Positions 3,890 to 57,510 of a stretch of DNA of 64,000 bases are shown here, in pieces. The translations under genes and the position numbers were made by a program. The notes below the pieces were generated by a model. It was not told where the DNA came from, did not search any database, and saw only the letters and a list, made by a program, of their open reading frames with translations. Numbering within the stretch: position 1 is the first letter of the stretch; each line of letters opens with the position of its first letter. Origin of the DNA: Escherichia coli (GTDB lineage: Bacteria > Pseudomonadota > Gammaproteobacteria > Enterobacterales > Enterobacteriaceae); assembly GCF_036507355.1 (NCBI RefSeq), contig NZ_AP027877.1; one strand, written 5' to 3'.

Positions 3890-6079
3890 ATGCTTTACAA
3901 AGGCGACACCCTGTACCTTGACTGGCTGGAAGATGGCATTGCCGAACTGGTATTTGATGCCCCAGGTTCAGTTAATAAACTCGACACTGCGACCGTCGCC
4001 AGCCTCGGCGAGGCCATCGGCGTGCTGGAACAGCAATCAGATCTAAAAGGGCTGCTGCTGCGTTCGAACAAAGCAGCCTTTATCGTCGGTGCTGATATCA
4101 CCGAATTTTTGTCCCTGTTCCTCGTTCCTGAAGAACAGTTAAGTCAGTGGCTGCACTTTGCCAATAGCGTGTTTAATCGCCTGGAAGATCTGCCGGTGCC
4201 GACCATTGCTGCCGTCAATGGCTATGCGCTGGGCGGTGGCTGCGAATGCGTGCTGGCGACCGATTATCGTCTGGCGACGCCGGATCTGCGCATCGGTCTG
4301 CCGGAAACCAAACTGGGCATCATGCCGGGCTTTGGCGGTTCTGTACGTATGCCACGTATGCTGGGCGCTGACAGTGCGCTGGAAATCATTGCCGCCGGTA
4401 AAGATGTCGGCGCGGATCAGGCGCTGAAAATCGGTCTGGTGGATGGCGTAGTCAAAGCAGAAAAACTGATTGAAGGGGCGATGGCGATTTTACGCCAGGC
4501 CATTAACGGCGACCTCGACTGGAAAGCGAAACGTCAGCCGAAGCTGGAACCGCTAAAACTGAGCAAGATTGAAGCCACCATGAGCTTCACCATCGCTAAA
4601 GGGATGGTCGCACAAACGGCGGGGAAACATTATCCGGCCCCCATCACCGCAGTAAAAACCATTGAAGCTGCGGCCCGTTTTGGTCGTGAAGAAGCCCTAA
4701 ACCTGGAAAACAAAAGTTTTGTCCCGCTGGCGCATACCAACGAAGCTCGCGCACTGGTCGGCATATTCCTTAACGATCAATATGTAAAAGGCAAAGCGAA
4801 GAAACTCACCAAAGACGTTGAAACCCCGAAACAGGCCGCTGTGCTGGGCGCAGGCATTATGGGCGGCGGCATCGCTTACCAGTCTGCGTGGAAAGGCGTG
4901 CCGGTTGTCATGAAAGATATCAACGACAAGTCGTTAACCCTCGGCATGACCGAAGCCGCGAAACTGCTGAACAAGCAGCTTGAGCGCGGCAAGATCGATG
5001 GTCTGAAACTGGCTGGCGTGATCTCTACAATCCACCCAACGCTCGACTACGCCGGGTTTGACCGCGTGGATATTGTGGTAGAAGCTGTTGTCGAAAACCC
5101 AAAAGTGAAAAAAGCCGTACTGGCAGAAACCGAGCAGAAAGTACGCCCGGATACCGTGCTGGCGTCTAACACTTCAACCATTCCTATCAGCGAACTGGCC
5201 AACGCGCTGGAACGTCCGGAAAACTTCTGCGGGATGCACTTCTTTAACCCGGTACATCGGATGCCGTTGGTGGAAATTATTCGCGGCGAGAAAAGCTCCG
5301 ACGAAACCATCGCGAAAGTCGTCGCCTGGGCAAGCAAGATGGGCAAAACGCCAATTGTGGTTAACGACTGCCCCGGCTTCTTCGTCAACCGTGTGCTGTT
5401 CCCCTATTTCGCCGGTTTCAGCCAGCTGCTGCGCGACGGCGCGGATTTTCGCAAGATCGACAAAGTGATGGAAAAACAGTTTGGCTGGCCGATGGGTCCG
5501 GCATATCTGCTGGATGTCGTGGGCATTGACACCGCGCATCACGCTCAGGCGGTGATGGCAGCAGGCTTCCCGCAGCGGATGCAGAAAGATTATCGCGATG
5601 CCATCGACGCGCTGTTTGATGCCAACCGCTTTGGTCAGAAGAACGGCCTCGGTTTCTGGCGTTATAAAGAAGACAGCAAAGGTAAGCCGAAGAAAGAAGA
5701 AGACGCCGCTGTTGACGACCTGCTGGCAGAAGTCAATCAGCCGAAGTGCGATTTCAGCGAGGAAGAGATTATCGCCCGCATGATGATCCCGATGGTCAAC
5801 GAAGTGGTGCGCTGTCTGGAAGAGGGCATTATCGCCACTCCGGCAGAAGCGGATATGGCGCTGGTCTACGGCCTGGGCTTCCCTCCGTTCCACGGCGGCG
5901 CGTTCCGCTGGCTGGACACCCTCGGCAGCGCGAAATACCTCGATATGGCACAGCAATATCAGCACCTCGGCCCGCTGTATGAAGTGCCGGAAGGTCTGCG
6001 TAATAAAGCGCGTCATAACGAACCGTACTATCCACCGGTTGAGCCAGCCCGTCCGGTTGGCGACCTGAAAACGGCTTAA
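3890..6079 (+). CDS. fadB: Fatty acid oxidation complex alpha subunit FadB
   Basis: Start [25 protein letters not shown] with GGAG RBS; the ORF-track start at 3764 is an upstream extension running through the FadR operator. Confidence 0.95.
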
Positions 6080-18502: not shown

Positions 18503-19315
18503 ATGGCAACAACACAACAATCTGGATTTGCACCTGCTGCATCGCCTCTCGCTTCGACCATCGTTCAGACCCCGGACGACGCGATTGTGGCGGGCTTCAC
18601 CTCTATCCCTTCACAAGGGGATAACATGCCTGCTTACCATGCCAGACCAAAGCAAAGCGATGGCCCACTGCCAGTGGTCATTGTAGTGCAGGAAATTTTT
18701 GGCGTGCATGAACATATCCGCGACATTTGTCGCCGTCTGGCGCTGGAGGGGTATCTGGCTATCGCACCTGAACTTTACTTCCGCGAAGGCGATCCGAATG
18801 ATTTTGCCGATATCCCCACGTTGCTTAGCGGTCTGGTAGCAAAAGTGCCTGACTCGCAGGTGCTGGCCGATCTCGATCATGTCGCCAGTTGGGCTTCCCG
18901 CAACGGCGGCGATGTTCATCGTTTAATGATCACCGGATTCTGCTGGGGTGGACGTATCACCTGGCTGTATGCCGCGCATAATCCACAGCTAAAAGCCGCA
19001 GTGGCGTGGTACGGCAAACTGACGGGCGACAAGTCGCTGAATTCACCGAAACAACCTGTTGATATCGCAACCGATCTTAACGCGCCGGTTCTCGGCTTAT
19101 ATGGCGGTCAGGATAACAGCATTCCGCAGGAGAGCGTTGAAACCATGCGCCAGGCGCTGCGGGCTGCTAATGCGAAAGCAGAGATTATCGTGTACCCGGA
19201 TGCCGGGCATGCATTCAACGCTGATTATCGCCCGAGCTATCATGCCGAATCTGCGAAAGATGGCTGGCAGCGTATGCTGGAATGGTTTAAGCAGTATGGT
19301 GGGAAGCGGAGTTAG
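18503..19315 (+). CDS. ysgA: Dienelactone hydrolase-family protein YsgA
   Basis: Start placed at MATTQQSGFAPAAS with GGAG RBS; alpha/beta hydrolase. Confidence 0.85.
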   Translation: MATTQQSGFAPAASPLASTIVQTPDDAIVAGFTSIPSQGDNMPAYHARPKQSDGPLPVVIVVQEIFGVHEHIRDICRRLALEGYLAIAPELYFREGDPNDFADIPTLLSGLVAKVPDSQVLADLDHVASWASRNGGDVHRLMITGFCWGGRITWLYAAHNPQLKAAVAWYGKLTGDKSLNSPKQPVDIATDLNAPVLGLYGGQDNSIPQESVETMRQALRAANAKAEIIVYPDAGHAFNADYRPSYHAESAKDGWQRMLEWFKQYGGKRS

Positions 19316-19707
19316 TTTCCTCTTAGTCTATATTTGAGATGGTGAGTGAACGAGTGCGTTTTGCTGCCATCTCTGTCCCCCAAAAAATAATCAGTATGAA
19401 TTGATTGGAGATTACGACTCCGCTATTTGACCTTAAGAAAGTCGGCAAGTCATAGTCATAAATGAGTCTCTTCAATGGAAGACACCTTAGAGATTTACCA
19501 TCCACTCCCATTCACAAACAAACATTAATTATTATCAACACATTCACATTAATTATAAATCATCTCAGACCTTCCTGATAAAAAGATATTAAAGTGAAAC
19601 ATTGTGTTTTTCACATTTTAGTTCATCACTTTTAGGCGTAAATAAAGGTAAAAAAACAACAATACTATTTCTCTTTCACAAAAGAATTAACAAAAGGTTT
19701 TTCAAGG

Positions 19708-20856
19708 ATGAGTGATATTATTTACTTGACCATAACCGGAGAACAACAAGGATGTATTTCCTCTCGTTGTGGAACGAGCGCATCAATAGGTAATCGCTGG
19801 CAGATTGGCCATGAAGATGAAATCTTCGCGTTCTCGCTCTCTAATAGTATTACGAATACAGGCAAAGGGTCACAATTGCATGGCCTTAGTTTCTGTAAAT
19901 TGATTGACAAAAGCTCCCCGTTACTTATTAACGCTATTAACAATAACGAGCAGTTGTTCATGGAGTTTGACTTCTATCGGATCAATAGATTTGGTCGATG
20001 GGAGAAATATTACAACATTCAACTCCGCGGCGCGCTCTTATCAGCAATCAATCACCTGTTTACTGAGAACAATCTGGATACAGAAGCCATCACTGTCAGT
20101 TATGAATATATACTCTCCAGGCATCTGATTGCTAATACTGAATTTAGTTATTTGGCATTTCCCGATAACTACAACCGTCTGTTTATACCACGGCCAAAAA
20201 CTAAAGCTGGTAATGGTTTCAAAACACTTAACAGTAAAGCGGTTGGCAGACTGCTTGCTGCTGGTGGCATATACAATGGGAATATCGAAGGATTCAGGGA
20301 AACAGCAGACAAGTTGGGGGGAGATGCACCTGCTGGTTACGATCAATTTATGGATAACAAAGGGTTACTCATCGCTGGTGCTTCAATAGTTGCTGGAGCA
20401 GTTCTGGGGAGAATGAGACTCCCTGATTTGGAATCACTTGAGCATTTCGGAGCCAGAGGAGCAGTATCAGGAAGACCATTTAATCCCGACCTTGCCGGTG
20501 GTCCAATAGAAAATCTGACGACAGATGGCATAACAATCAACAGGGAAGGTATCGCTATTGTTGAAAAACACATAGCCAGATTTGGTCATGACCCTGTAAA
20601 TGAAGTGATGATCAATAGACTGAAAGACATTGAGAAAGGAAAAATCCCCCCAGAACAAGTAGATCTTAACTTCTATACTCATGAGTGTCGGGAATATCAG
20701 CGTTACTGTAATCTTGGTTGGGAAACAGGACAACCTGATGGTGACGCAGGCTATGCACTCTGGAATCATACGCATACTGCTACTCTAGAAGATTATAAAC
20801 TTAAGGGAGAACTTAATGACTTATACCACCAGGATGCACTTGACTATGATAACTGA
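19708..20856 (+). CDS. Hcp-fold protein with ~210-aa C-terminal extension (candidate 'evolved Hcp' type VI secretion effector); C-terminal domain unassigned
   Basis: N-terminal ~165 aa carry Hcp signature blocks (KLIDKSSPLL; FDFYRINRFG) aligning to KEIDSSSPYL and FKWYRIN of canonical Hcp; AAGGA RBS; gene visibly AT-rich; not in the K-12 ysgA-metE interval. Confidence 0.72.
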   Translation: MSDIIYLTITGEQQGCISSRCGTSASIGNRWQIGHEDEIFAFSLSNSITNTGKGSQLHGLSFCKLIDKSSPLLINAINNNEQLFMEFDFYRINRFGRWEKYYNIQLRGALLSAINHLFTENNLDTEAITVSYEYILSRHLIANTEFSYLAFPDNYNRLFIPRPKTKAGNGFKTLNSKAVGRLLAAGGIYNGNIEGFRETADKLGGDAPAGYDQFMDNKGLLIAGASIVAGAVLGRMRLPDLESLEHFGARGAVSGRPFNPDLAGGPIENLTTDGITINREGIAIVEKHIARFGHDPVNEVMINRLKDIEKGKIPPEQVDLNFYTHECREYQRYCNLGWETGQPDGDAGYALWNHTHTATLEDYKLKGELNDLYHQDALDYDN

Positions 20857-21091
20857 AACTGAAATTATCGTACTGAAAGTTATGGCTGAGAAAGATATAA
20901 ACTGGAACTGGATGAATCTCGATCGCACACTATCCATAAGGCAAATTCCAGGATTCGGTAATGTTGTTAACATTGTTAACAAATTAGCTAACGAGGGTTT
21001 GGTTATTATTGAGGATAGCGGACATAAGTCTATGCCTCACTACCACGTTACTGAAAAGGGATACAATTTCGTGAAAAGTGAGAATAAATAA
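20816..21091 (+). CDS. Small protein immediately downstream of the Hcp-extension gene; candidate cognate immunity protein (possible internal start at 20846)
   Basis: The ATG at 20846 overlaps the upstream stop in an ATGA arrangement; 81-91 aa; same strand; AT-rich. Confidence 0.5.
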   Translation: MTYTTRMHLTMITETEIIVLKVMAEKDINWNWMNLDRTLSIRQIPGFGNVVNIVNKLANEGLVIIEDSGHKSMPHYHVTEKGYNFVKSENK

Positions 21092-21237
21092 CGTAGCGTT
21101 GATTACTGAACAAATCGCTCAGGATTATATTTTGCGTAAAAATGATTCGGTTATTTCTGTATCTGAACGGGCGCAGATAGCAAAATGGCTTCCGGTGATG
21201 GAAGCCATCAGATTATTGGCAAAGTGCGCGTTGTTCA

Positions 21238-33435: not shown

Positions 33436-33813
33436 TTGCATGAGAGTGGGCATATTGCCATGCTGACAGGAGACTCACACAAGGATGTAAAATTTATGTT
33501 ACGTATGTTTATCCCAACATCTAACGGTAAGATTTCCAGACGCCGTTATATATTTTCATTTATTTTAATAAACTTCATTTTTGCCTTTCTTATTATCTTT
33601 TTTAACGATGGAGAAGCAGGTTTTCTTGTTATAGTCTCTACCATCTTACTCCATTATCTCGTCATCAATCTGAATTGCCAACGACTCCGTGATAGTGGTT
33701 TCGTCTATATAAAAACTTATGTTTTTGGTACATTAGCAGTATATATCATCTCTATCATCACAATGATAGCCGAAGATTTTGCCTGTTCAGGCAATGGTTC
33801 GATGATTTTTTAA
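33436..33813 (+). CDS. yigG: Small inner membrane protein YigG
   Basis: 125-aa ORF with two hydrophobic helices; position after rarD; AT-rich. Confidence 0.6.
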
Positions 33814-33888
33814 TTTGTTATTTTTCCACTTTCAGTATGCTAATGCTTGCACCTACTGATTCATCAAAACAATAGTTATGGAGTATTT

Positions 33889-34269
33889 ATGAGTAAGGAA
33901 TATATGAACGATGGTTCATTAAGTGAAAAATGGAAATACCGATTTAATTTTTATGATCAACATGGTTTTCCTGGATTCTGGGGGGCAACACCAGAATATA
34001 AAGCAGCATTTAAAGCATTAAAAGTAAGACAACGCTTAACTATTCAAATGAATTTCATTGCTTTCTTCTGTTCCTAGATATATTTATTTGTCCTGGGGTT
34101 ATGGAAAAAAGCAATTATAGTTCTATTACTTGGTATTCTATCTCTATTTGTTGGTGCACTAATTGGCGTTAACATTCTGGGTATTGCCGTAGCAGCCTAT
34201 GTTGCTGTTAACACGAACAAATGGTTCTATGAGAAAGAAGTAAAAGGGTTAAATACCTGGAGCCTTTGA
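33889..34269 (+). pseudogene. yigF: yigF (DUF2628-type small membrane protein) interrupted by an in-frame amber codon at 34075-34077
   Basis: MSKEYMNDGSLSEKWKYRFNFYDQHGFPGFWG... stops at TAG after 62 codons, then the same frame stays open for 63 more protein-like hydrophobic codons to TGA at 34267-34269. Confidence 0.6.
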
Positions 34270-34309
34270 ATAAGAGGTGGCTTAGCCAGGCTAAGCCACC
34301 GCCTTCTTT

Positions 34310-34445
34310 TTACAACCAGTTCTTGCGCTTAAAGTACAGATACGGTGCCAGGCCCGCGAGGATCATAAAGATAATCGCGCCTGGGTAGCCGAAACTCCAC
34401 TTCAGTTCTGGCATAAACTCAAAGTTCATGCCATAGCTGGAGGCA
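34310..34445 (-). repeat. Orphan near-identical copy of the corA 3' end (direct repeat of 36017-36150)
   Basis: Encodes ...[43 protein letters not shown], the CorA C-terminus including the GMN motif; only a few mismatches to the intact corA 3' end. Confidence 0.85.
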
Positions 34446-34637
34446 ATCCGCGTAGGAAAAAGTTTCCTAATCGGTAAATTCAACATATTGTTATTAACAA
34501 TGGGCAAAACCAATCAATAACGAGATTCCCTTCGGAATGTAATAAAAATGTGAAGTGTACTTCTTTTTTAAAATTTTTTATCCTAGCATTTGTTCTCAAA
34601 TTGATATTGAGCTTAAATATAACCAAGGAAAATGTAA

Positions 34638-35345
34638 ATGAATAACACATTACTTCCATCAATTAATATTCCCTGTACACTTTTCGAAACTATTAGTTTA
34701 TTTGATGATTATTCTGCTGATGATATGCAATATGGTGATATGGTAGAACAAGATTTTCTCTCACTCGGCCTAAGCGATATCTCAGCAAAAGTTGATCCTT
34801 ACAGACTTATTAAATACCATTTCCCTGGCCCAGGTTCTGTTAATGTTGTTTTTAGTGCCTCAAGTTCCGGAACAAAAATATCACAACGTGAATGCACTGA
34901 TATTTTATTTGCAGAAATGAAAGAACTAGCAAAAAATTTTTCCTTTTTTGGACAATATAAAACACTTATCGAAGATCTGATTGAACATTTTAGATATGGA
35001 AATGGCAGCAATTTTCATAGCCAACAATTAAATTTATCTTTTCATGAAAAGATAAATAAATATGGTTATAATAGTCCAATACGAATAATCAAAGAATGTA
35101 TCGAAAATGGCATTAATTCAACTCCCTCGACAGGATACCAACCTCTTATCCTGCAAAGCATTAAAACCAAATTACTTTCATCAAGACTAAATAAATTTAA
35201 TGACTTCGAGGACAGTTTTAATGGCTTAGGAATCAGTATTCATGATATTTCAGCTCAAAAAAATATCTCTTTTAAGCTTTCAAAAATACGCTATAGGGTG
35301 GAGTGCGACAATTCATTTTGTAGCACAGGACCACTTCGGTCTTGA
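34638..35345 (+). CDS. Hypothetical protein in the AT-rich corA-adjacent insert; probably frameshifted (alternative frame continues to 35487)
   Basis: 235-aa ORF with no match recalled; AT-rich; an A7 tract at 35260-35266 lies where a second frame opens and runs to a TGA overlapping the next gene start. Confidence 0.45.
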   Translation: MNNTLLPSINIPCTLFETISLFDDYSADDMQYGDMVEQDFLSLGLSDISAKVDPYRLIKYHFPGPGSVNVVFSASSSGTKISQRECTDILFAEMKELAKNFSFFGQYKTLIEDLIEHFRYGNGSNFHSQQLNLSFHEKINKYGYNSPIRIIKECIENGINSTPSTGYQPLILQSIKTKLLSSRLNKFNDFEDSFNGLGISIHDISAQKNISFKLSKIRYRVECDNSFCSTGPLRS

Positions 35346-35483
35346 TGTAACTGATATCAAAAACAAGACTTACAGCAAATATAGATTTTTTCGCATATGG
35401 TTCTTTTTACAACGGCATAAAGGCTTTGCTTTCAAACCTTTTTTCACCAATTTTAACACTATCGAAAGAATCGAAAATTATCT

Positions 35484-35975
35484 ATGAAAAGCAAACGCCA
35501 GAAAATTATATTATGTTTATTTCTTCTATGCTGTATCTATAATTTATGGACATTGCGTCCTGTACAGATTTTGTATACATACTCTGATGCTGGCAATTCA
35601 GTCTTTCTGGTCGTTGATCATCTGCCATGGACTGACAGCGATAAAATAAATTGGTATCTGAAGCATCAGAATGAAATTAAAAATCAACATCCCCTACCAG
35701 AAGGTAGTTGGCATACCTGGTATGTCATTGATATCGGTAATGGCTTCACTGACTATAAAAAATATATCGAAGGGCCGTATGAAGATCTCTACTGTTTCCC
35801 GACAATTAAGAGCAATGATAATTGCATCGTGAAAAATTACTTAATGGTTATTAATGAATACCCTTATCGTAACACTCATATTGGTATTAACGATTTTACT
35901 GAGTATCAATTAACACAAGAAAATAAAATAGAGCGAGTTTTCAATCCGCATGACTTTAAAAAAGACAATTTTTAG
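35484..35975 (+). CDS. Hypothetical small membrane-anchored protein (N-terminal signal/TM segment), second gene of the insert
   Basis: 163-aa ORF MKSKRQKIILCLFLLCCIYNLW...; Trp/Tyr-rich; AT-rich; followed by a GCCGGATAAA...TTTATCCGGC hairpin. Confidence 0.5.
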   Translation: MKSKRQKIILCLFLLCCIYNLWTLRPVQILYTYSDAGNSVFLVVDHLPWTDSDKINWYLKHQNEIKNQHPLPEGSWHTWYVIDIGNGFTDYKKYIEGPYEDLYCFPTIKSNDNCIVKNYLMVINEYPYRNTHIGINDFTEYQLTQENKIERVFNPHDFKKDNF

Positions 35976-53979: not shown

Positions 53980-55176
53980 ATGCTAAAAGTGTTATTGCTC
54001 TTTGTGTTGCTGATTGCGGGGATCGTGGTTGGCCCGATGATTGCCGGTCATCAGGGTTATGTGCTGATCCAGACCGACAACTACAATATCGAAACCAGCG
54101 TCACGGGCCTGGCGATCATATTGATTCTGGCGATGGTAGTGCTGTTTGCCATTGAGTGGCTACTGCGGCGGATCTTCCGCACTGGCGCGCACACCCGTGG
54201 GTGGTTTGTCGGGCGTAAGCGTCGCCGTGCACGTAAGCAGACCGAACAGGCGCTGCTGAAACTGGCGGAAGGCGATTATCAGCAAGTTGAAAAGCTGATG
54301 GCGAAAAATGCCGATCACGCTGAACAACCGGTGGTGAACTATCTACTGGCTGCCGAAGCCGCGCAACAACGTGGTGATGAAGCGCGCGCCAACCAACATC
54401 TGGAACGCGCAGCGGAGCTGGCCGGCAATGACACCATTCCGGTAGAAATCACCCGTGTACGTCTGCAACTGGCCCGTAATGAAAACCATGCTGCACGCCA
54501 CGGCGTGGATAAGCTGCTGGAAGTTACGCCACGCCATCCGGAAGTATTACGTCTGGCGGAACAGGCGTATATCCGCACAGGTGCATGGAGTTCGCTGCTG
54601 GATATTATCCCATCAATGGCGAAAGCCCATGTTGGTGATGAAGAACATCGTGCAATGCTGGAACAACAGGCATGGATTGGCCTGATGGATCAGGCGCGTG
54701 CCGATAACGGTAGCGAAGGTTTGCGTAACTGGTGGAAAAACCAAAGCCGGAAAACGCGTCATCAGGTAGCGTTGCAGGTGGCAATGGCGGAACATCTTAT
54801 TGAATGTGACGATCATGATACTGCCCAGCAAATTATCATCGATGGCCTGAAACGCCAGTACGACGATCGCCTACTGCTGCCGATTCCTCGACTGAAAACA
54901 AACAATCCGGAACAGCTGGAAAAAGTGCTGCGCCAGCAAATCAAAAACGTCGGCGATCGCCCGCTGTTGTGGAGCACACTGGGCCAGTCACTGATGAAGC
55001 ACGGAGAATGGCAGGAAGCATCGCTCGCCTTCCGCGCAGCGCTGAAACAACGTCCGGACGCCTACGATTACGCATGGCTTGCCGACGCGCTGGACAGACT
55101 GCACAAGCCGGAAGAAGCTGCAGCGATGCGTCGCGACGGTTTGATGTTAACGTTGCAGAACAACCCACCACAGTAG
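53980..55176 (+). CDS. hemY: HemY TPR-containing membrane protein
   Basis: 398-aa ORF MLKVLLLFVLLIAGIVVGPMIAGHQGYVLIQTDNYNIETSVTGLAIILILAMVVLFAIEWLLRRIF. Confidence 0.93.
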   Translation: MLKVLLLFVLLIAGIVVGPMIAGHQGYVLIQTDNYNIETSVTGLAIILILAMVVLFAIEWLLRRIFRTGAHTRGWFVGRKRRRARKQTEQALLKLAEGDYQQVEKLMAKNADHAEQPVVNYLLAAEAAQQRGDEARANQHLERAAELAGNDTIPVEITRVRLQLARNENHAARHGVDKLLEVTPRHPEVLRLAEQAYIRTGAWSSLLDIIPSMAKAHVGDEEHRAMLEQQAWIGLMDQARADNGSEGLRNWWKNQSRKTRHQVALQVAMAEHLIECDDHDTAQQIIIDGLKRQYDDRLLLPIPRLKTNNPEQLEKVLRQQIKNVGDRPLLWSTLGQSLMKHGEWQEASLAFRAALKQRPDAYDYAWLADALDRLHKPEEAAAMRRDGLMLTLQNNPPQ

Positions 55177-55223
55177 TTCCTTCTCACCCGGAGGCAAGCA
55201 CCTCCGGGGCCTTCCTGACACAT

Positions 55224-55430
55224 AAAAAAACGCCTGCTCTTATTACGGAGCAGGCGTTAAAACAGGTCTGTATGACAACAAGTGGGTGCTTCACTCAACG
55301 TTGTGTCCATGGTGTCTGATGAGGCATAAGCGACATCTGTCAGTGGACGATAAGCACCGTAAACGGCTCTGCGTCATTCCGGAGTTTATGAGGCACTAAG
55401 GCGAACATAAGAGATGGAATGAGCATCTAC
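55224..55430 (-). ncRNA. glmZ: GlmZ small regulatory RNA
   Basis: Minus strand reads GTAGATGCTCATTCCATCTCTTATGTTCGCCTTAGTGCCTCATAAACTCC...AACGCCTGCTCCGTAATAAGAGCAGGCGTTTTTTT, matching GlmZ as recalled, in the expected hemY-aslA spacer with its terminator. Confidence 0.88.
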
Positions 55431-55854
55431 TCGTTTATTATGCCACAGAGAATCGGGAAATAACATCCCTTAACACTTGTTATGAGATAATTCTGTAATC
55501 CTCTTTGCTTCCTGAGTAATAACTTCCTGAGTGAACATTTAACCTGAGCTTGATCCTACACATACTTATTATGAATGATAAAATTCATTCAATTAATAAC
55601 ACATATATTAATTGCCGTTAAAACTAAAAACATCATTAATAATCAACGCGATATAATAAACCTGCCTTACATATCAACTGCGCCAGAGGTAGGATTGAAA
55701 ACGCTCTCCTGATTTTTAAATTCATTTCTTGGATAAATAAATAATTTATTTTTATCACTATTATTTATGTAATCATCCTGTCAGGGAGAGGGATCTCAAT
55801 TATCAATGCTTAATTACGTCATCATTTTGTTGACATGAAACCGGAGCATTTTGC

Positions 55855-57510
55855 ATGGAATTTTCGTTTTCACCCAAACGTCTTGTTGTTGCTGTCGCCG
55901 CCGCTCTTCCTCTCATGGCCAGCGCAGCAGATACCCCGTCAACTGCCACCGCACGCAAAGGCTTTGCCGGATACGATCACCCAAACCAGTATCTGGTTAA
56001 ACCGGCGACCACTATTGCCGACAATATGATGCCAGTAATGCAGCATCCGGCGCAGGATAAAGAAACCCAGCAGAAGCTGGCAGAACTTGAGAAAAAAACC
56101 GGTAAGAAACCGAATGTGGTTGTTTTCTTGCTGGACGATGTGGGCTGGATGGACGTCGGTTTTAACGGTGGCGGCGTGGCGGTGGGTAACCCTACACCAG
56201 ATATCGACGCCGTTGCCAGCCAGGGGCTGATTTTAACTTCGGCGTATTCTCAACCAAGCTCTTCCCCAACCCGCGCCACCATTCTCACCGGACAATACTC
56301 CATCCACCACGGCATTCTGATGCCGCCAATGTACGGGCAACCGGGCGGGCTGCAAGGGTTAACCACGCTGCCGCAGTTGCTGCACGATCAGGGCTACGTC
56401 ACTCAGGCCATCGGGAAATGGCATATGGGGGAAAACAAAGAGTCGCAGCCGCAGAACGTTGGCTTTGATGATTTCCGTGGCTTTAACTCGGTGTCTGATA
56501 TGTACACCGAATGGCGCGACGTTCACGTAAACCCGGAAGTGGCCCTGAGTCCGGACCGTTCTGAATACATCAAGCAATTACCATTTAGCAAAGATGACGT
56601 TCATGCGGTGCGCGGCGGCGAACAACAGGCCATTGCCGACATTACGCCGAAATATATGGAAGATCTGGATCAACGCTGGATGGAATATGGCGTTAAGTTC
56701 CTCGACAAGATGGCGAAGAGTGATAAGCCTTTCTTCCTCTATTACGGCACTCGCGGCTGTCACTTCGATAACTACCCGAACGCCAAATATGCGGGTAGCT
56801 CTCCGGCACGCACCTCGTATGGCGACTGCATGGTGGAAATGAACGATGTGTTCGCTAATCTGTATAAAGCACTGGAGAAAAACGGTCAGCTTGATAACAC
56901 GCTGATTGTCTTTACCTCCGATAACGGACCGGAAGCCGAAGTACCGCCGCACGGACGCACACCGTTCCGTGGTGCGAAAGGATCTACCTGGGAAGGCGGC
57001 GTTCGCGTTCCGACTTTCGTGTACTGGAAAGGGATGATCCAACCGCGTAAATCTGACGGTATTGTCGATCTGGCAGATCTCTTCCCTACCGCGCTGGATC
57101 TGGCAGGGCATCCTGGCGCGAAAGTGGCGAATTTAGTGCCGAAAACCACCTTTATCGATGGTGTGGACCAGACATCTTTCTTCCTGGGAACAAATGGTCA
57201 GTCTAACCGTAAGGCCGAGCACTACTTCCTCAACGGTAAACTCGCTGCTGTGCGTATGGATGAATTCAAGTATCACGTCCTGATTCAGCAACCTTACGCT
57301 TATACCCAGAGCGGATATCAGGGTGGATTCACCGGCACAGTAATGCAAACAGCCGGATCGTCGGTGTTTAACCTGTACACCGATCCGCAGGAGAGCGACT
57401 CCATCGGCGTGCGCCATATTCCGATGGGTGTACCGCTACAGACCGAAATGCACGCGTATATGGAGATCCTGAAAAAGTATCCACCACGCGCGCAGATTAA
57501 ATCTGATTAA
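55855..57510 (+). CDS. aslA: Arylsulfatase AslA (signal peptide)
   Basis: 551-aa ORF with signal peptide and sulfatase features ([11 protein letters not shown]...[10 protein letters not shown]). Confidence 0.93.

Follow-up and report, generated by a model that had tools for sequence, protein, structure and literature searches.

The interval between hemY and aslA in the 64,000-nt stretch of Escherichia coli DNA analyzed here (the window) very probably comprises the hemY terminator, the gene for the GlmZ small RNA, and a 424-bp divergent control region common to glmZ and aslA. The locus is already known, and the 424 bp that an earlier reading of the letters alone (the sequence-only reading) had called unexplained form a divergent control region of the ordinary kind, neutral in its middle. 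Work published in 2011 dissected its glmZ side; the map of constraint along the spacer is new here. In K-12, whose sequence is identical over this part, glmZ is driven by one constitutive sigma70 promoter that reaches no further than 40 bp upstream, the DNA beyond being unneeded. We propose that the 280 bp adjoining aslA may hold a weak or regulator-dependent aslA promoter, operators and a short leader, and that the AT-rich tract may keep aslA quiet via H-NS under laboratory conditions. Comparison between genera shows this tract to be the glmZ-proximal end of an aslB-aslA segment that displaced a GlrR/sigma54 control region.

In the ORF list of the window, hemY ends at 55176 and the 551-aa aslA ORF begins at 55855, which leaves a 678-bp spacer (55177-55854) and, beyond glmZ, the 424 bp at 55431-55854. 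The coordinates given earlier for the end of hemY, for GlmZ (55224-55430, minus strand) and for the start of aslA are exact. The 424 bp have a G+C content of 31.6%; the window as a whole has 51.2%, and no more than 0.86% of its 424-bp windows reach so low a value. The spacer carries both the TAATAA and the ATAAATAAATAA tracts that had been described, and its AT-richness is far above chance. Other strongly AT-rich stretches of the window lie at 33546-35930, 19312-19735 and 20764-21187 (28.5-36.6% G+C per 424-bp window), two of the three being below the glmZ-aslA spacer in G+C.

Of 5426 complete E. coli genomes, 5423 contain the glmZ-aslA spacer, which is covered to at least 80% in 5407 and is single copy (a median of one place per genome). 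An exact match is absent from all 5426; the nearest spacers, at 99.3%, are those of O157:H7 strains, with three substitutions (55537, 55634 and 55638), so that the strain behind the window is closely related to the O157:H7 lineage and lies outside the genomes sampled. The spacer does not behave as a repeat or mobile element (REP, MITE or IS remnant), being single copy with short inverted repeats at chance level, and the O157 and K-12 RefSeq records contain no annotation within it. On its far side lies aslA (55855-57510, plus strand), identified by its ORF and by annotation in O157:H7 and K-12 as an arylsulfatase-like protein of 551 aa. The aslA sulfatase is implicated in E. coli K1 invasion.

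The 3' untranslated end of hemY occupies 55177-55223 on the plus strand and includes a G+C-rich hairpin, CCCGGAGG-CAAGCA-CCTCCGGG, at 55187-55208. In K-12, the primary 3' end of the hemY mRNA was mapped by Term-seq to 3986647 (minus strand), which corresponds to position 55215 of the window (Term-seq supplement, PMC7815308). The same K-12 data contain a bicyclomycin-sensitive, that is Rho-dependent, 3' end antisense to glmZ at 3986596 (minus strand), or about 55266 on the plus strand of the window; because of this end, hemCDXY read-through past the hemY hairpin would be stopped by Rho inside glmZ, short of the spacer and aslA. The gap between hemY and glmZ is 47 bp in both the window and K-12, whereas E. 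coli 98218 (NZ_CP173493.1) has an extra annotated gene there for a 196-aa hypothetical protein (WP_001260227.1), at 1005-1595 of the locus compared.

The identity of glmZ is plain from Rfam: the whole of the GlmZ_SraJ model (RF00083, positions 1-214) aligns to the minus strand at 55224-55430, scoring 218.4 bits where the gathering score is 60 (E = 1.6e-57). The gene, with its transcription start at 55430, is 100% identical to glmZ of K-12 and O157 and ends in an intrinsic (Rho-independent) terminator hairpin found at 55229-55258 by a terminator scan. It is convergent with hemY on the opposite strand, and this synteny is kept in all enterobacterial loci examined. Term-seq places glmZ-internal 3' ends in K-12 at 3986582/3 (PMC7815308), or about 55280 in the window, from which the 3' end of the RNase E-processed GlmZ can be set at about 55279-55280.

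The sequence-only reading held that the spacer contains the glmZ promoter, and this is well founded. The K-12 spacer (3986008-3986431) has the same 424-bp length and is 97.9% identical to the one studied here; the nine substitutions fall mostly at 55634-55754 and at 55831, with none in the mapped glmZ promoter, and the 106 bp nearest to glmZ on its upstream side are 100% identical, including the -10 and -35 hexamers. Goepel et al. (2011, NAR 39:1294, PMC3045617) made a lacZ fusion to the K-12 spacer (-424 to +32) and shortened it in steps; DNA upstream of -40 was dispensable for glmZ expression, mutation of either the -35 or the -10 hexamer abolished it, and expression, which came from a single constitutive sigma70 promoter, was independent of rpoN and glrR. 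By identity to K-12, the core promoter lies at 55431-55470 on the minus strand, with CATAAT as the -10 (-12 to -7; 55437-55442), preceded by TGG in the manner of an extended -10, and ATGTTA as the -35 (55461-55466), 18 bp apart. In E. coli PSS-16 (NZ_AP027713.1), an IS1A insertion with an adjacent deletion (4001-4817 of the locus compared) has removed the equivalent of about 55481 onwards, so that of the spacer just the 50 bp next to glmZ are retained and the rest is gone together with the 5' part of aslA, whose annotated remnant is 735 bp; this deletion agrees with the published -40 limit of the glmZ promoter.

The spacer might instead be seen as an enhancer of glmZ, with GlrR sites, IHF bends and a sigma54 promoter. 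Such an architecture is present at glmY and at the glmZ genes of Salmonella and Yersinia (PMC3045617) and of most Enterobacteriaceae, and the spacer does contain four one-mismatch matches to the IHF consensus WATCAANNNNTTR, which are likely to occur by chance in AT-rich DNA. However, aligned with Salmonella-type promoters the spacer lacks the -24 element; the sigma54 pattern TGGCAC-N5-TTGCA (-24/-12) does not occur at the glmZ start, its best match in the spacer lying elsewhere with 3 of 11 positions mismatched, and the best match to the GlrR site TGTC-N10-GACA has 3 of 8 mismatches. In K-12, moreover, GlrR did not bind the -424 to +32 fragment in EMSA, and neither loss of rpoN or glrR nor deletion to -40 had an effect (PMC3045617). 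An enhancer of this kind is thus refuted for K-12 by that work, and with the promoter-proximal 106 bp identical in the window we see practically no chance of one here.

To map constraint, hemY through aslA was aligned for nine sequences (the window, K-12, O157, the B2 strain Nissle, three divergent E. coli, E. albertii and L025, a third Escherichia species), with the 4-fold degenerate sites of hemY and aslA as a neutral yardstick. At these sites identity is 58-65% with E. albertii and 67-73% with L025, and all nine sequences agree at 41-47% of them. Constraint was measured, in 20-bp bins, as the share of alignment columns that are invariant. By this measure the spacer has three parts. The stretch nearest glmZ (55431-55496) is constrained, with 70-90% invariant columns; its outer part (55471-55496, 75-90%) is conserved beyond what the published glmZ deletion series requires. 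There follow about 80 bp of indel-prone filler (55497-55576) with 17-45% invariant columns, at or below the neutral baseline. The remainder, 55577-55856, is again constrained (50-100% invariant columns per bin). Pairwise identities give a similar picture: the bin 55501-55630 is 65% identical to E. albertii and 58% to L025, against 58-73% at 4-fold sites, while identity with both species rises to 84-89%, like coding DNA, in the bins 55631-55720 and 55721-55854. As judged from this alignment, the roughly 280 bp adjoining aslA are under purifying selection and the central 80 bp or so drift neutrally, with indels.

Within E. coli, the spacer is 89-93% identical to that of the window in B2-type and other divergent strains. 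Its neutral segment contains a 15-bp tandem duplication, CTTCCTGAGTAATAA / CTTCCTGAGTGAACA, at 55508-55537, one copy of which is missing in A134_1EC and P19_598, giving 409-bp spacers. An exact 10-nt direct repeat, CTTCCTGAGT, present twice, was considered as a conserved binding site and rejected as part of this polymorphic duplication. Another duplication, of 7 bp (TCAATTA) and near 55796, occurs in strain QML220614. As for the flanking genes, aslA (55855-57510) is a local hot spot of diversity: when the window is compared with a B2 strain, 81% of its 4-fold sites are identical, against 89.5% for hemY (53980-55176).

This map bears on a simpler view, in which everything beyond the glmZ core promoter is functionless AT-rich junk, left where a horizontally moved aslB-aslA segment ends. 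Several laboratories use the glmZ-aslA spacer as a neutral integration site, the isolate PSS-16 is viable with its IS1 deletion, the central 80 bp are unconstrained, and the spacers of different genera are unalignable save near the aslA start. However, 55577-55854 is conserved at 84-89% between Escherichia species where 4-fold sites reach only 58-73%, some of its 20-bp blocks are 100% invariant, and over 99.6% of the complete E. coli genomes retain the spacer. We therefore regard junk throughout as very unlikely and retain a divergent control region with a neutral middle as the preferred explanation.

Because 55577-55854 is constrained, it presumably contains the promoter, operator sites and 5' leader of aslA on the plus strand, a placement that rests on conservation. 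The expectation that the spacer must also hold the aslA control region gains weight from the purifying selection on these 280 bp. In the nine-sequence alignment, invariant or nearly invariant blocks stand out at 55683-55713 (CCAGAGGTAGGATTGAAAACGCTCTCCTGAT), 55735-55752, 55796-55818 (TCAATTATCAATGCTTAATTACG) and 55834-55856, the last including the Shine-Dalgarno GGAG (55843-55846). Just upstream of the aslA Shine-Dalgarno is an imperfect hairpin or palindrome (55818-55823 with 55829-55834), which in K-12 is a perfect inverted repeat, GTCATC-N5-GATGAC, and has one or two mismatches in other strains, the window included. E. albertii keeps the repeat by a double change (GACATC...GATGTC). This element could be a leader hairpin or an operator, a single compensatory event being too little to choose between the two.

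Pattern scans of the spacer gave little that would place the aslA promoter more closely. A sigma70 scan returned four sites, no significant excess over the 1.9 +/- 1.6 expected, and two of the four point away from glmZ and aslA alike. The constrained aslA-side region contains no canonical -35/-10 pair kept across the alignment, and because of this the aslA promoter is probably weak or regulator-dependent. Consensus scans of the spacer for CRP, FNR, Fur, ArcA, ArgR, Lrp, Fis, CpxR, NarL and PhoP stayed at chance level; the best regulator match, a PhoP box at 55657-55673, has two mismatches, is lost in B2-type strains and was rejected. A sigmaS-type -10 (cAATGCTtaa, 55804-55813) was likewise dropped, since the aslA probe stands in the E-sigma70-preferring ROMA table: in run-off transcription of naked K-12 DNA in vitro, read out by microarray, E-sigma70 gave 2.5-fold more signal from it than E-sigmaS (PMC3141248, Table 2). 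Term-seq recorded, in one condition, an abundant RNA 3' end inside aslA, 1108 nt into the ORF, at K-12 3984899 (minus strand), or 56963 on the plus strand of the window (PMC7815308); this end shows that K-12 transcribes aslA on at least some occasions.

The conserved block that extends past the glmZ core promoter contains a candidate extended -10, TGaGATAAT (55483-55491, plus strand), pointing toward aslA. It is possible, though rather doubtful, that aslA or an upstream non-coding transcript starts there, back-to-back with the glmZ promoter. A start so far upstream would yield an AT-rich leader of about 360 nt with more C than G, attenuated by Rho and H-NS, and would be an addition to the main explanation, not a substitute for it. 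The pattern TGNKATAAT is rare, with six occurrences in 128 kb (both strands of the 64-kb window), the candidate lies in a block conserved past the needs of glmZ, and A2 and T6 of its -10 are kept in both E. albertii and L025. Shimada et al. predicted an aslA promoter at the same place (TTAACA-18-TGTAAT, 55470-55499; PMC3946193), and the G-C skew of the plus strand downstream (-0.29 to -0.48 at 55500-55650) is rut-like. However, this divergent promoter is pattern-based only; its TG is lost in E. albertii and its T3 in L025. In addition, the 80 bp directly downstream drift neutrally with indels, which is unusual in a functional leader, Term-seq gives no 3' ends in the spacer, and the RNA polymerase SELEX signal is inseparable from that of the strong glmZ promoter 50 bp away. 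That 55471-55496 would be the divergent promoter of a plus-strand transcript (an aslA leader of about 360 nt or an ncRNA suppressed by Rho and H-NS) and, jointly, the 280 bp a multi-input switch for aslA is a combination that we consider unlikely.

The sequence-only reading had also raised a further small transcript hidden in the spacer, and a small RNA or small-protein gene might be sought there since the spacer is unusually long, includes a mechanical ORF of 45 aa (55575-55712), has a 10-codon frame (55806-55838, plus strand) intact in all nine sequences, and shows minus-strand folds with z scores of -3.6 and -3.9. None of these holds up as a gene. The spacer contains 17 mechanical ORFs of at least 9 codons, the longest being that of 45 aa, so the earlier statement that it has no ORF does not stand literally; it does stand in the sense that none is conserved apart from two trivial frames. 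Every frame of 12 codons or more is broken in at least one of the nine Escherichia sequences; the 45-aa ORF loses its ATG in B2-type strains, E. albertii and L025 and acquires stops in L025. Only the 10-codon frame and an 11-codon frame on the minus strand are intact in 9/9, and these lie in a highly conserved stretch, have no Shine-Dalgarno and carry non-synonymous substitutions. No spacer ORF therefore combines a conserved frame, a Shine-Dalgarno and synonymous bias.

Evidence for an RNA gene is no better. Rfam gave no family other than GlmZ at E <= 1 in 54000-57000, and the terminator scan found no second terminator-like site in the spacer besides that of glmZ. A sliding RNAalifold scan with column shuffles yielded no convincing conserved fold; the two minus-strand windows with z below -3 (55531-55635) are weak AT palindromes of -6.6 to -8.8 kcal/mol that lie partly inside the neutrally drifting segment. 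In the K-12 Term-seq data (PMC7815308) the consecutive 3' ends are 3984899, 3986582/3 and 3986647, with none inside the spacer on either strand. The spacer thus offers neither a terminator or stable 3' end nor a strong conserved structure by which an independent sRNA gene would be recognized. With the K-12 RefSeq annotation also silent, a hidden small gene is already largely refuted, and we hold one to be highly improbable.

The spacer had further been likened to curved DNA of the H-NS or IHF type, and here the three components fare differently. H-NS binding is supported in vitro: in the genomic SELEX of Shimada et al. (2014, PMC3946193) the entry 'aslA < HNS > glmZ' is among the divergent spacers bound by both H-NS and RpoD holoenzyme, and the spacer is as AT-rich as such a region should be (31.6% versus 51.2% G+C). 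The promoter hexamers of that study are pattern predictions, and the one for glmZ misses the mapped promoter (PMC3946193). Within a conserved AT tract, TGGATAAATA (55730-55739, plus strand) matches the H-NS nucleation motif TCGATAAATT with two mismatches, a candidate site that is weak by itself as the window contains 95 such matches. IHF-type DNA is not borne out, since Goepel et al. detected no IHF sites for E. coli glmZ (PMC3045617) and only one-mismatch matches occur here. Nor is curvature: by AA/TT helical phasing at 9.5-11.5 bp, a crude proxy for intrinsic curvature, the spacer does not exceed chance, as 36% of dinucleotide shuffles reach the observed maximum (p about 0.36).

To see how this arrangement arose, we turned to other genera. 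A scan with a glmZ pattern, using one genome per species, returned at least 120 stretches, and 95 of those listed match glmZ. Among the matches listed, aslA lies upstream of glmZ only in three Escherichia species, Superficieibacter, Kluyvera and Pseudocitrobacter. Most other Enterobacteriaceae have the argX-hisR-leuT-proM operon next to glmZ, with a sigma54/GlrR promoter between; the operon ends 145-330 bp before glmZ in Salmonella, four Citrobacter species, Enterobacter, Raoultella, Kosakonia, Pluralibacter and Atlantibacter. The first 400 bp upstream of glmZ have 30-34% G+C where aslA is the neighbour and 42-51% in the other Enterobacteriaceae among these matches, and the six proM-glmZ intervals extracted have 42-47%. 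Sites of the form TGTC-N10-GACA are visible in the intervals of Salmonella, Citrobacter koseri and Enterobacter, and TGGCA(C/T)-N5-TGC(A/G)ATAAT is present in all extracted intervals except those of Raoultella and Pluralibacter. Salmonella-type intervals contain both TGGCAC-N5-TGCAATAAT and TGTC-N10-GACA, both of which are absent from the spacer studied here.

Comparison of K-12 with Salmonella shows where the exchange took place. The 39 bp after proM, which contain the terminator of the tRNA operon, are 100% identical, and then nothing is shared until about -18 of glmZ. The aslA-type spacers, for their part, are unalignable between genera save for the glmZ -10 and the last 50 bp or so before the aslA start. 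By these alignments, an aslB-aslA segment of about 3.6 kb has taken the place of everything between a point 39 bp past proM and about -18 of glmZ, and has brought a new -35 hexamer for glmZ; Superficieibacter, Kluyvera and Pseudocitrobacter have such a segment at the same site. The segment displaced the ancestral activator region and the -24 element, which explains why E. coli glmZ kept just its sigma70 -10 element. Variability upstream of glmZ, and the failure of E. coli-type promoters to align with the rest, had been pointed out by Goepel et al. (PMC3045617); since that variability was already on record, the replacement proposed here is a refinement and not a discovery.

Raoultella ornithinolytica has 189 bp between proM and glmZ, with no aslA insertion, and its -24 element reads TTCCAC instead of TGGCAC. 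It belongs with the Klebsiella group, which has been described as sigma70-only for glmZ (PMC3045617). Because the -24 is broken there without an aslA insertion, sigma54 control of glmZ was probably lost independently, by mutation, in the Klebsiella and Raoultella lineage.

What follows from this analysis has little significance beyond housekeeping. The conservation map points to 55577-55854 as the place in which to look for the control elements of aslA and marks the 80 bp at 55497-55576 as probably safe to disrupt. It is accompanied by a clear structural reason for the escape of E. coli glmZ from sigma54 and GlrR, namely that the aslB-aslA segment replaced everything above about -18.

Set beside known systems, the spacer resembles the type-A spacers of Shimada et al. 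that carry the HNS mark, in its 31.6% G+C, in the poorly expressed gene that borders it and in its several promoter-like hexamer pairs. It departs from what would be expected of H-NS-type spacers in having no significant A-tract phasing, and from the H-NS-marked type-A spacers in that the glmZ promoter is strong and constitutive despite the mark. Compared with the sigma54/GlrR-dependent glmZ promoters of Salmonella and Citrobacter, positions -18 to -1 are homologous, including an overlapping sigma70 -10 (TGTG-CAATAAT versus TGTGGCATAAT), and GlmZ itself is 90% identical, whereas the aslB-aslA segment with its AT-rich end stands here in place of the -24 element, of all three TGTC-N10-GACA sites and of the proM operon next to them.
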